The notes under the pieces are model-generated. The model saw nothing but the letters and a program-made list of their open reading frames with translations, was not told where the DNA came from and ran no database searches. This document shows, one piece after another, positions 16,601 through 25,263 of a DNA stretch of 64,000 nt. Each line of letters opens with the position of its first letter. Within the stretch, counting starts at the first letter, position 1. This DNA is from Sminthopsis crassicaudata (Eukaryota): contig NC_133621.1 in assembly GCF_048593235.1 (NCBI RefSeq), positions 92,991,148 through 93,055,147 of the forward strand, in the 5' to 3' direction. The translations under genes and the position numbers were made by a program.

Positions 16601-17328
16601 CAAGCAGCTGGTATAAATTATCAGAATTAATATTACTTTTACAAAGAACTAAAATTTTAGTTTTTTTTTTCTTTCATAATAAAAGCAAGTGATATGTGAT
16701 AGTTTGCAAATAGGCTTATATTTCAATCAATTCTCACAATAATCCTATGAGGTCCATGATGCAGATATTCCTATTTCCATATGACAGATAAGGAAATTGA
16801 GCCAGGTAAGTGACTTGTTCAAGCCAATCTGGTAAATGAGAGAGTAACACTCAAAATCAGGTCTTTTGACTCTCTAAACTCCTACTTTTAAAAATTATAC
16901 TATACTGTTTGCTTGTTATTTTTCTAATAGTTAAAAATCAACATAATACTTTTCTTTTTTTATCATGTGCAACTTAATCCCTAGCACACATGTACCCAGG
17001 TGCACTGTCACTCACAAATTTGATTGAATAGGACTTCCCCTATATTCTCCAAATCACTTGGAGAATCTTAGAAGTAGCCTTGGATGCATTTGACTATCAG
17101 ATGCAGTTGGGAGGAATGGAGAAATCTTCCTAACATTTATAATTGACCTAAAGTAAAATGAGCTGCTTCAAGTACTAGTGACTTTTTTTTTTTAATCTCT
17201 GAGGGTTTTCAAACAGAAATTGGATGACCATGCTTTTGTGATTTTCAGTCACAGTTTAAACCAGATGACTTTGAATGTACTTTCCAACTCCTGAGATTTT
17301 GTGATTCTGTGGATGTGAGTAGAGAAAG

Positions 17329-17780
17329 TGTTAGGATTACTAGGTGAGAACTCAGGTTGTCTGGACAGTGATAAGGTGAGAATTCAGGTTGTCTGGACAA
17401 TTACAAGGTGAGAACTCAGGTTGACTTGACAGTTCTCTGGCTCAGACCTTTGGTTTGGGCCTTTAAAGGGAGTTTACATGTTAGGAATTCTAAGAGGAGC
17501 AAGTTCATTGGTTGGAGTACTTCTTCCCAGAAGCCCTTGCATTATCCCATGCCCATTCTCTAGGAGGATAAAAAGAGGCAACATTGAGCCTGGAGAGCAG
17601 TCTGGACTGGGGAAGGACAAGAGCTGGAGGAGATTCAGAGCCAGGATTCAGGAAGAAGAAGAGGCTGGCTGGAGGCTCCAGAAGCCTCCCAAGAAACCTG
17701 CTCATAGAGGAAAAGATTATACAGAAAAGAAACCTTCTCCCAGAGAAGGATTACAACTGAGAGACAATCAGAACATTACA
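17329..17780 (+). mobile_element. ERV LTR (class II/betaretrovirus-like), left arm of an inverted LTR pair
   Basis: Begins TGTTAGG and ends TTACA. Contains 32-bp U3 tandem repeats, a reverse CCAAT (ATTGG ~17508) and a TATA-like GGATAAAAAG (~17566). Followed after 2 nt by a tRNA-Lys PBS; preceded by AGAAAG (17323-17328). Confidence 0.92.
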
Positions 17781-17782
17781 AT

Positions 17783-17800
17783 TGGCGCCCAATGTGGGGC
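17783..17800 (+). other. Retroviral primer-binding site, tRNA-Lys1,2 (CUU)
   Basis: TGGCGCCCAATGTGGGGC is a 17/18 match to the complement of the tRNA-Lys(CUU) 3' end (TGGCGCCCAACGTGGGGC); the single difference is a CpG>TpG change. Confidence 0.93.
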
Positions 17801-17806
17801 GCCAAT

Positions 17807-18273
17807 TATAATGTGCTGTTTTCTCCAGAAGCTGCTGATCGCTCTCTGGGAAGAGATCTGCTGTGTCAACTCAAATTTCTCAGACAGATTCTTCTTCCTG
17901 TAGAGAGCCCTTGTCTCCAGACAGTTGCCGTTAACTCTTGTCCAGAGAAGTGACTTCCCTTCCTGCAGAGAGCCGCGTCAAGCCTGATGTAGAGCAGAGA
18001 CTTCTTCTCTCTCTGGAGTGCTGTCCTCTTTTATCCTCCCAGAGAATGGGCATGGGATAATGCAAGGGCTTCTGGGAAGAAGTACTCCAACCAATGAACT
18101 TGCTCCTCTTAGAATTCCTAACATGTAAACTCCCTTTAAAGGCCCAAACCAAAGGTCTGAGCCAGAGAACTGTCAAGTCAACCTAAGTTCTCACCTTGTA
18201 ATTGTCCAGACAACCTGAATTCTCACCTTATCACTGTCCAGACAACCTGAGTTCTCACCTAGTAATCCTAACA
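17807..18273 (-). mobile_element. ERV LTR, right arm, inverted relative to 17329-17780
   Basis: The reverse complement of 18025-18273 equals 17329-17578 except for 2 substitutions and 1 indel. On the minus strand it ends ACATTATA-AT-TGGCGCCC. Followed by AGAAAG (18274-18279), the TSD. Confidence 0.92.
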
Positions 18274-18841
18274 AGAAAGAGTGACCTAGTGAGGTATCAA
18301 AGGCTGGGGAAACTCTGAGTCTCAAATCTGTTCTCTTGGGTGGGCAAGTGCATGATTTCCATGCTATCAAAATAGGACAAAGTAGTGAGTGATATGGAGG
18401 AGAGAATAGAAAGCTAGGTGGAACAGCATGTGGAGTGCTAGTCCTGGAGTGAGGAAAACCTAAATTCAGATCCAGCTTTGGACATTTATTTGTAGTGTCA
18501 CTTTGATCAAGGTATTTTATCTTTCTGTCTCAGTTTTCTCAACTTTAAAATGAGAATAATCCATGCCCTCATTTTTCTTTAGGAAAGTCTCTATCCTACA
18601 TGACCACAAACACATGCCCTGACCTGGAAGAATGAAACTCCTTTAGAAGTCTATGATTCTATAATTCCTGGGGCTGCAGGGATTTGGAGCTAAAATTAGG
18701 GACAGGCAGGATAGAGGTAGAGAGAAGAATGGATGTCACAACAGAGATTAAGGGTATAGTCTGGCTAAGAAGATAAGTAAAAGAATGCATAATCTAAATT
18801 AGATTTAGAGCTTGAAGCCACTTTAGACATATTCTGGTCCA

Positions 18842-24417: not shown

Positions 24418-25022
24418 ATACTTTGGCCACACAATGAAAAGACCAGACTCATTGGAAAAGATTCTGATGTTAGAAAAGATTGCAGACAAAAGTAAAAGTG
24501 GATGTCAGAGGATGAGATGGTTAAAAAGTATCATAGAAACAATGAACATGAACTTGGATAGCTTTTGAGAGATAGTAGAGGATAGAAGGGGGTAGAGGGC
24601 TGAAACTCCAAAAAGGTGTGCTTGAATCATACAACCGAGCACTTAAGGCTAATTATCTATTTGATGTGACTCTATTAGCATATGTTTGGAAAACTGACTC
24701 TTCTCACCATTGGTTCTGGCTCAATGTTTGAAGTTAACATAATTGTAGGCAAGGTGGGGTGAAAGAGGTGAGACTTCATTTGGCAGCAGGAGGAGGAGAA
24801 AGATGGAGATTCTGGATTCCAGAATGGAGAAGAGATTTTTGGCAAAACTCCTGACAGTTTGCCTGCTTCTCCCCCTAAAAAACAAGGACTTTTACTTATC
24901 CTGACTTTGGCTGATCCTGAGGCCTCCAGGGAGCTAGCCTGGACTTAACAGTAGGGTCTGGCATGTTGAGATCCCTGGGATCACAAAGAGTTAGACACAA
25001 CTGAATAACAACAATAATACAC
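24418..25022 (+). mobile_element. RTE/BovB-type LINE 3' end, split by a solo LTR
   Basis: Translates YFGHTMKRPDSLEKILMLEKIADKSKSGCQRMRWLKSI, matching the BovB RT C-terminus; the 3' end GGGATCACAAAGAGTTAGACACAACTGAATAACAAC resumes after 24950. Confidence 0.9.
24591..24950 (+). mobile_element. Solo ERV LTR (360 bp)
   Basis: (G)GTAGAGGGCTGAAACTC...TTAACA termini; imperfect 6-bp TSD GAAGGG/GTAGGG; cleanly interrupts the RTE element. Orientation is assumed from the recalled family start. Confidence 0.8.
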
Positions 25023-25225
25023 ACAAACACACAGTGACATATGTATATATATATATATGTATGTATATGTATATATATAATGTATATATATATATTTTTT
25101 CTGTAATAATGCAATAACTGTTCTGGCATGAACAATAAGGGTCTGGCATGTTGAGGTCCCTGGGATCACAAAGAGTTAGACACAACTGAATAACAACAAT
25201 AATACACACAAACACACAGTGACAT

Positions 25226-25263
<38 letters not shown>

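Follow-up and report, generated by a model that had tools for sequence, protein, structure and literature searches.

Structure of the Element

The window, i.e., the whole 64,000-nt stretch of Sminthopsis crassicaudata DNA analyzed here, contains a 945-bp element (17329–18273) composed of two long terminal repeats (LTRs) that face each other within a single 6-bp target-site duplication (TSD), and the longest inverted repeat of the window is formed by 17329–17573 with 18029–18273. Its features, including the two copies of the primer-binding site (PBS) at its center, are as follows.

17323–17328, no strand: left TSD copy AGAAAG; flank at single-copy depth up to 17317
17329–17780, forward strand: left LTR (type A), 452 nt, TG...CA, placed by alignment and by loose ends at both termini
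17343–17438, forward strand: three 32-nt tandem units in U3, enhancer-like, with a putative function
17507–17511, forward strand: reversed CCAAT-like word, 60 nt from the TATA-like word, a putative promoter element by this spacing
17567–17573, forward strand: TATA-like GATAAAA, a putative promoter element by its spacing to the CCAAT-like word
17579–17780, forward strand: inner half A, comprising the U3 end and R/U5 of lineage A, without AATAAA or ATTAAA
17783–17804, no strand: joint of two tRNA-Lys1,2 PBS copies with an antiparallel 14-nt overlap, each 2 nt from its own LTR end
17807–18024, reverse strand: inner half B, comprising the U3 end and R/U5 of lineage B, with a non-canonical terminal dinucleotide at 17808
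17807–18273, reverse strand: right LTR (type B), 467 nt, inverted; its U3 part (18025–18273) is 98.8% identical to the left U3
18274–18279, no strand: right TSD copy AGAAAG, a direct repeat of the left copy

When lengths of 3–11 were compared at the two borders, the direct repeat AGAAAG matched at 6 only, and the enclosure of both arms by one TSD indicates that they were inserted in one event. The inverted LTRs have no interior between them, and neither gene, leader nor polypurine tract (PPT) was present in the element. The purine-rich left flank was considered as a PPT and rejected, since its single-copy depth identifies it as host DNA. Likewise, a solo LTR was ruled out by the presence of two LTRs and two PBS copies, and a TRIM or an ordinary provirus by the inverted LTRs and the lack of an interior with PBS and PPT. 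None of the nine window open reading frames tested matched Pfam (0/9), the element itself being devoid of coding sequence. A search of the window against Rfam gave sub-threshold hits only (mir-15 on the central hairpin, and a frameshift element), and neither tRNA genes nor other copies of either LTR were found within the 64 kb. A U3 word gave 0 matches in viral, metagenome and prokaryote contigs, as did the LTR end plus PBS in viral contigs. The putative inward-facing promoters and the 245-bp stem might give rise to double-stranded RNA; the locus itself is probably inert.

The LTRs likely derive from a class II (beta-like) endogenous retrovirus (ERV), although the element carries no pol. Both LTRs start with TG, the left one ending with CA at 17780 and the right end being one letter off; a tRNA-Lys PBS lies 2 nt behind the LTR; and the TSD is 6 bp long, as is typical of beta-type retroviruses. 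The canonical poly(A) signal of class II LTRs was absent, as AATAAA, ATTAAA and AGTAAA were all searched for in both arms and none was found; related copies contain AATAAA near 17607, as seen at a loose end of run X5 among the loose ends listed. The element resembles class II LTRs with a tRNA-Lys1,2 PBS, such as that of SERV-2 (PMC8775094), in its TG...CA LTR of approximately 450–470 nt, 2-nt spacer, Lys1,2 PBS and abundant solo copies, whereas it differs from that type in that its LTRs are inverted, joined at the PBS, and lack leader, genes, PPT and canonical poly(A) signal. Four 8-letter words gave 0 matches to the marsupial MEBrv/MEGrv sequences as printed in the supplement of PMC11334065, where the letters are spaced every 10, and the LTR starts visible there, those of 4/8 records, differ from those of the present element.

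Comparison of the Two Arms

In the pairwise alignment, the outer arms (17329–17578 versus 18273–18025) were approximately 99% alike. As counted in the first-pass annotation of this DNA, the outer ~250 nt differ by exactly two substitutions (17417/18185 and 17562/18040) and one 1-nt indel, located in the A run at 17570. The inner halves differ in length (203 versus 218 nt), again as annotated, and all of the four patches that had been named as common to them were recovered. The collinear chain of three words was matched by 4/500 dinucleotide shuffles and a common word of at least 12 letters occurred in 10/500, while the best local alignment of the inner cores was equaled in 128/500. With the shared ends trimmed, the global score was −75, against a mean of −121 and a maximum of −73 in the shuffles. 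Because 128/500 shuffles equaled their best local alignment, inner halves A and B are distant homologues at most.

The annotation had labeled the diverging halves R/U5, which is imprecise: the identity stops 5 nt past the TATA-like box, inside the predicted U3 and approximately 20 nt upstream of the R start as predicted from the putative start site. No indel at the TATA A run, on either side, appeared among the letter rows listed (40 of 71). The 5-A form may thus be that of lineage A and the 4-A form that of lineage B, which would place the break at or before the TATA-like box, approximately 20–25 nt upstream of the predicted R start. At that distance, the break is not accounted for by a simple first-strand jump within R.

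Three point differences (17562, 17808 and 18185) read G to A on the forward strand; APOBEC-like editing was considered for them and dropped, three sites being too few.

Copies of the Two LTR Lineages in Sequencing Runs

Contigs from four of 24 listed runs (X1, X5, X7 and X12, representing four studies) were aligned to 16900–18035 at 85% likeness, runs with small shares being left out except X12, and the figures given here refer to the 40 of 71 letter rows, 15 of 132 joints, 24 of 1393 loose ends and 32 of 57,018 pieces that were listed. In X1, the summed depth, which indicates many copies and is not a copy number, was 17.4 in the flank, 0.6–3.2 million in U3, 0.4–1.8 million in half A and 1.1–3.0 million in half B, dropping to 0.11 million in the last bin (18002–18035) and to 18,600 at the center. 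Among the loose ends listed, those with unrelated flanks piled up at 17329 (154 and 134 contigs in X1 and X5, and a further 14) and at 17780 (88 and 91 contigs in X1 and X5), and these pile-ups fix the ends of the left LTR. Half A thus occurs as an LTR end with many different flanks, and at other loci it is joined to the same U3: X12 records 10 and 11, both contigs from elsewhere in the genome, link this U3 to half A, and X5 record 22 runs through half A and the full PBS before entering other sequence. For half B, X1 records 6 and 8, both from other loci, run through the TATA context, just 15–16 letters past 18035.

The family copies differ at many U3 sites and by gaps of 35–65 nt. Some lack 43–65 nt of U3 (17429–17495) or approximately 43 nt of half B (17906–17955), and some A-type copies have extra sequence near 17659–17665; there are more than two structural subfamilies. 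Run X7, guessed to be RNA, gave low-depth cover of the left flank (17124–17348), which could be read-through or DNA carry-over; no listed run is on record as RNA.

Both inner halves are accordingly high-copy LTR sequence in this species. Being different multi-copy LTR sequences, they uphold the annotation's statement that the element is no simple self-foldback or assembly mirror. One could still suppose that the palindrome is an assembly artifact, or that a host deletion joined two independent neighboring proviruses of opposite orientation, with conversion of their U3s, given that no contig bridges the center with 31 letters on each side among the 32 of 57,018 pieces listed and that the arms are beyond the resolution of short-read contigs. 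We regard either event as very improbable. A mirror would not produce different multi-copy inner halves, arm-private changes and a meaningful PBS register, and independent insertions would carry different TSDs, an argument made in PMC1950507 for other insertions, whereas AGAAAG flanks both arms here and is found 4 times in 1995 positions of the flanks. Furthermore, the left junction was present in contigs from three studies (X1, X5 and X7), reaching 20–22 letters into the LTR, where the bridging threshold is 31.

The Primer-Site Joint at the Center

The left PBS agreed with the published tRNA-Lys1,2 PBS (PMC8775094) at 17/18 letters and the right PBS at 15/18, while the left PBS agreed with the Lys3 PBS at 13/18. 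Plus-strand strong-stop DNA ends at PBS letter 18 (PMC9317671; PMC8775094), and it is at letter 18 that the left PBS stops. Two copies of the Lys1,2 PBS placed antiparallel over 14 nt form 12/14 pairs, with four pairs at each 3′ end. This register is the best duplex (−15.0 kcal/mol, versus −10.6 kcal/mol for the GGCGCC register), and no other among the 16 places 4 pairs at each of the 3′ ends. Equivalent pairing is unavailable with the Lys3 PBS, and 205/10,000 shuffles of the PBS 18-mer permit as much pairing. Since the last 14 nt of the Lys1,2 primer-site copy form a near-palindrome, both 3′ ends would be paired and extendable, and the 22-nt joint predicted upon extension of both ends matches the window at 21/22 letters, the exception being 17793, a CpG position. 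The center thus points to dimerization of two plus-strand strong-stop DNAs and to integration via the two U3 ends of the dimer, and the single TSD together with the primer-site joint points to a single product of reverse transcription.

Recurrence of the Joint in Metagenome Contigs

The 22-mer joint was found in 27 metagenome contigs representing 18 distinct loci, mostly between LTR-like ends, and gave 0 matches in viral and prokaryote contigs; the chance expectation for a 22-mer is 0.02–2 per 10^12 positions, a value per position that is not scaled to the bases of the collection. The canonical variant among the four allowed forms was present in 26/27 contigs. ACA occurred within 5 nt of the PBS on 27/36 sides, as against 11.5% of control positions, and GCCA followed the ordinary Lys1,2 PBS at 0/32 sites in viral contigs. 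A Lys3-type joint was seen in 0/27 contigs, a count that provides no control as the loci were selected by the Lys1,2 joint. In the joint loci, 5/46 frames matched Pfam at E 0.01, and because these matches include a CUB domain and weak integrase remnants, it is suggested that the joint-bearing contigs are host animal DNA. The arms of these loci were unrelated to the LTRs at 17329–18273.

The likeness between arms extended over the full length at 2 of the 18 loci, over part of it at 4 and over the last 20 nt only at 6, and at the remaining 6 the arms were unlike; in all, 16/18 joint loci have unlike arms. This surplus of unlike partners may be due in part to the loss or misassembly of perfect palindromes. 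A complete parallel to the present element was found at one locus, L016 (1253–1662), which spans 410 nt, carries the 4-bp TSD AAGT, and has LTR starts sharing approximately 110 nt at 93% and inner parts that are unlike. A convincing TSD was found at this 1/18 loci only, the LTR starts not being placeable or the contig being too short elsewhere; a blind TSD scan of these loci returned many candidates attributable to chance, of which only that of L016 was accepted.

Among the other features of these loci, L016 and likewise L010 have one arm that corresponds to the other with an internal deletion, and a dimer can pair a full with a shortened LTR. In L011, further LTR-end or PBS-like words lie in both arms, 322 and approximately 50 nt left of the joint, and the arm likeness extends approximately 120 nt past the first TG terminal repeat, so that the unit may be tandem or nested. 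In L020 (1048–2174), weak integrase-domain matches that fall below the Pfam cut-offs adjoin the joint and share the strand of the left LTR.

The recurrence of the joint also bears on a two-step origin, in which a longer element with a 3′ inverted LTR and an anti-PBS would have been integrated and its interior subsequently deleted between PBS and anti-PBS. These sites are near-direct repeats over 14 nt, and the deletion would yield the identical joint and TSD. Such a history requires two rare events, and yet the identical joint is found at 18 loci; moreover, deletion alone leaves the two LTR lineages unexplained. We therefore consider the two-step origin improbable.

Common Ancestry of the Two U3s

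Both arms were identical at 12/13 of the variable U3 sites listed, and they are closer to each other than two random family copies. At 17372, 17479 and 17480, the letter common to both arms was carried by at most 0.01–2.2% of the depth, a rarity comparable to that of the left-private letter at 17562 (1.0–2.0%), and the three shared letters were nearly absent in X7. On the evidence of these three rare letters, both U3s descend from one recent copy or template. The arms were last identical approximately 0.9 Myr ago (0.1–3.2) at the SINE rate given in PMC3403934, or 2.0 Myr ago (0.2–7.3) at an assumed 0.002 per Myr. This common ancestry is compatible with three histories, namely switching or folding back at the TATA homology, conversion at a later time, and a small sibling lineage. 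The mutation densities (2/498 versus 4/450 sites, p = 0.43) do not separate conversion from inheritance.

At 17472–17486, two adjacent rare letters turn the U3 sequence that directly follows TTTACA into a copy of the initial 8 letters of the LTR, a resemblance to an LTR end-to-start junction that may be due to chance or to a local template switch.

The first-pass annotation had read the element as two LTR subfamilies sharing a U3 that were co-packaged in one virion. That two multi-copy LTR lineages were involved is in accord with the results, and the single TSD and the primer-site joint fit one product of reverse transcription. The reading is not supported in its original form, since the break lies away from the U3/R border and the arms resemble each other more closely than two random family copies: given the shared rare letters, it needs either a small sibling lineage or a homogenizing step. 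Since depth is not a copy number, the rare letters could belong to such a lineage, and the element might then be a strong-stop dimer of co-packaged siblings that already shared their U3 through one earlier TATA-box recombinant, with no homogenization at the locus. LTR subfamilies are documented to exchange blocks (PMC8912925) and co-packaged RNAs to yield recombinant LTRs (PMC5668417), half B is joined to the same TATA context in the contigs from other loci noted above, the leftover depth at 17480 amounts to 29 to 63 times single-copy and leaves room for a small lineage, and in other genomes the joint mostly links unlike partners. However, the three shared letters are as rare as the locus-private one, and both source elements must have carried them and yet left almost no other copies. 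We thus regard an origin from ready-made siblings as a tentative alternative and rather unlikely.

Proposed Origin

Taken overall, the element is best explained, with a probability that we put at roughly 0.6, as an integrated dead-end product of reverse transcription, namely a strong-stop dimer of lineages A and B whose U3s stem from one template. In the proposed route, plus-strand strong-stop DNA would consist of U3-R-U5 and 18 nt copied from the tRNA primer and, instead of the normal jump to the minus strand, two such molecules, one each of lineages A and B of one beta-like ERV group, would pair together, both cDNAs presumably lying within one particle. Reverse transcriptase would then extend both paired 3′ ends, and the extension would give a linear duplex bounded by U3 at both of its ends. 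Integrase would insert this duplex by its two U3 ends, a use suggested by the TSD, generating the 6-bp duplication. The homogenizing step may have taken place while the dimer was formed, by switching or folding back at the shared TATA region, or afterwards, by arm-to-arm conversion. Integrase is probably able to use two U3 ends; a search of the literature for such use found no paper.

A single insertion has captured two LTR lineages in its unlike inner halves, and the recurring joint in unrelated animals points to a recurrent, apparently overlooked copying accident. We lean slightly toward the broader view that strong-stop DNA generally self-anneals via the near-palindromic Lys1,2 site, as a side route of reverse transcription that has gone undescribed. 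Inverted LTR dimers without genes would in this way be integrated in distant animal lineages, usually with two different elements as their source, and would hence leave a fossil record of particle sharing. If so, an exact 22-letter search of any animal assembly would list insertions that preserve both partners of one reverse-transcription event, and co-packaging, whether of different LTR subfamilies or of autonomous with non-autonomous elements, could be counted directly rather than inferred from mosaic consensus sequences. It would also follow that integrase accepts a pair of U3 ends in a germ line, and the choice of primer tRNA would determine the families able to form such palindromes (Lys1,2 yes, Lys3 no). 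The PBS-to-PBS recurrence is more valuable in this respect than the unlike halves, as it supplies both a mechanism and a one-line test.

Relation to Known Systems

No description of a PBS-to-PBS inverted LTR joint was found in the literature searched, in which older and subscription retrovirology is sparsely covered. As in the template-switch complex insertions of Triticeae (PMC1950507), two parents would have been fused during reverse transcription and one TSD flanks the product; those insertions, as described there, comprise two internal regions along with three directly oriented LTRs and originate at the minus-strand jump, whereas the present element has two inverted LTRs without interior and would arise from the plus-strand jump. 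Like HERVH LTR7 (PMC8912925) and Onsen (PMC5668417), it combines a shared U3 block with different downstream blocks of presumably co-packaged family members, but unlike those mosaics it holds both parents side by side in one insertion, and its break lies at the TATA-like box, while most of the Onsen LTR recombinants reported in PMC5668417 switch in R. The inversion circles formed by auto-integration (PMC7197481) are likewise aberrant cDNAs with LTRs in inverted orientation; these are unintegrated and joined at the LTR end, whereas the present element is chromosomal and joined PBS to PBS. The ‘inverted pair of LTRs’ of the locust, as the term is used in PMC8786324, concerns another thing.

Sequence Context of the Window

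The window is AT-rich vertebrate DNA with a GC content of 0.30–0.41. It is densely populated by CORE-SINE-like repeats (3677, 13453, 22269, 25749, 29974, 35766, 47356 and others), several of which have a short duplication near unit position 80, and which we take to be WSINE1-like (WSINE1b-like), as would befit an Australian-type marsupial. The description of WSINE1 in PMC3403934 fits these repeats. Short local duplications of an ordinary kind surround microsatellites at 1590–1771, 2766–2941 and 24953–25263.
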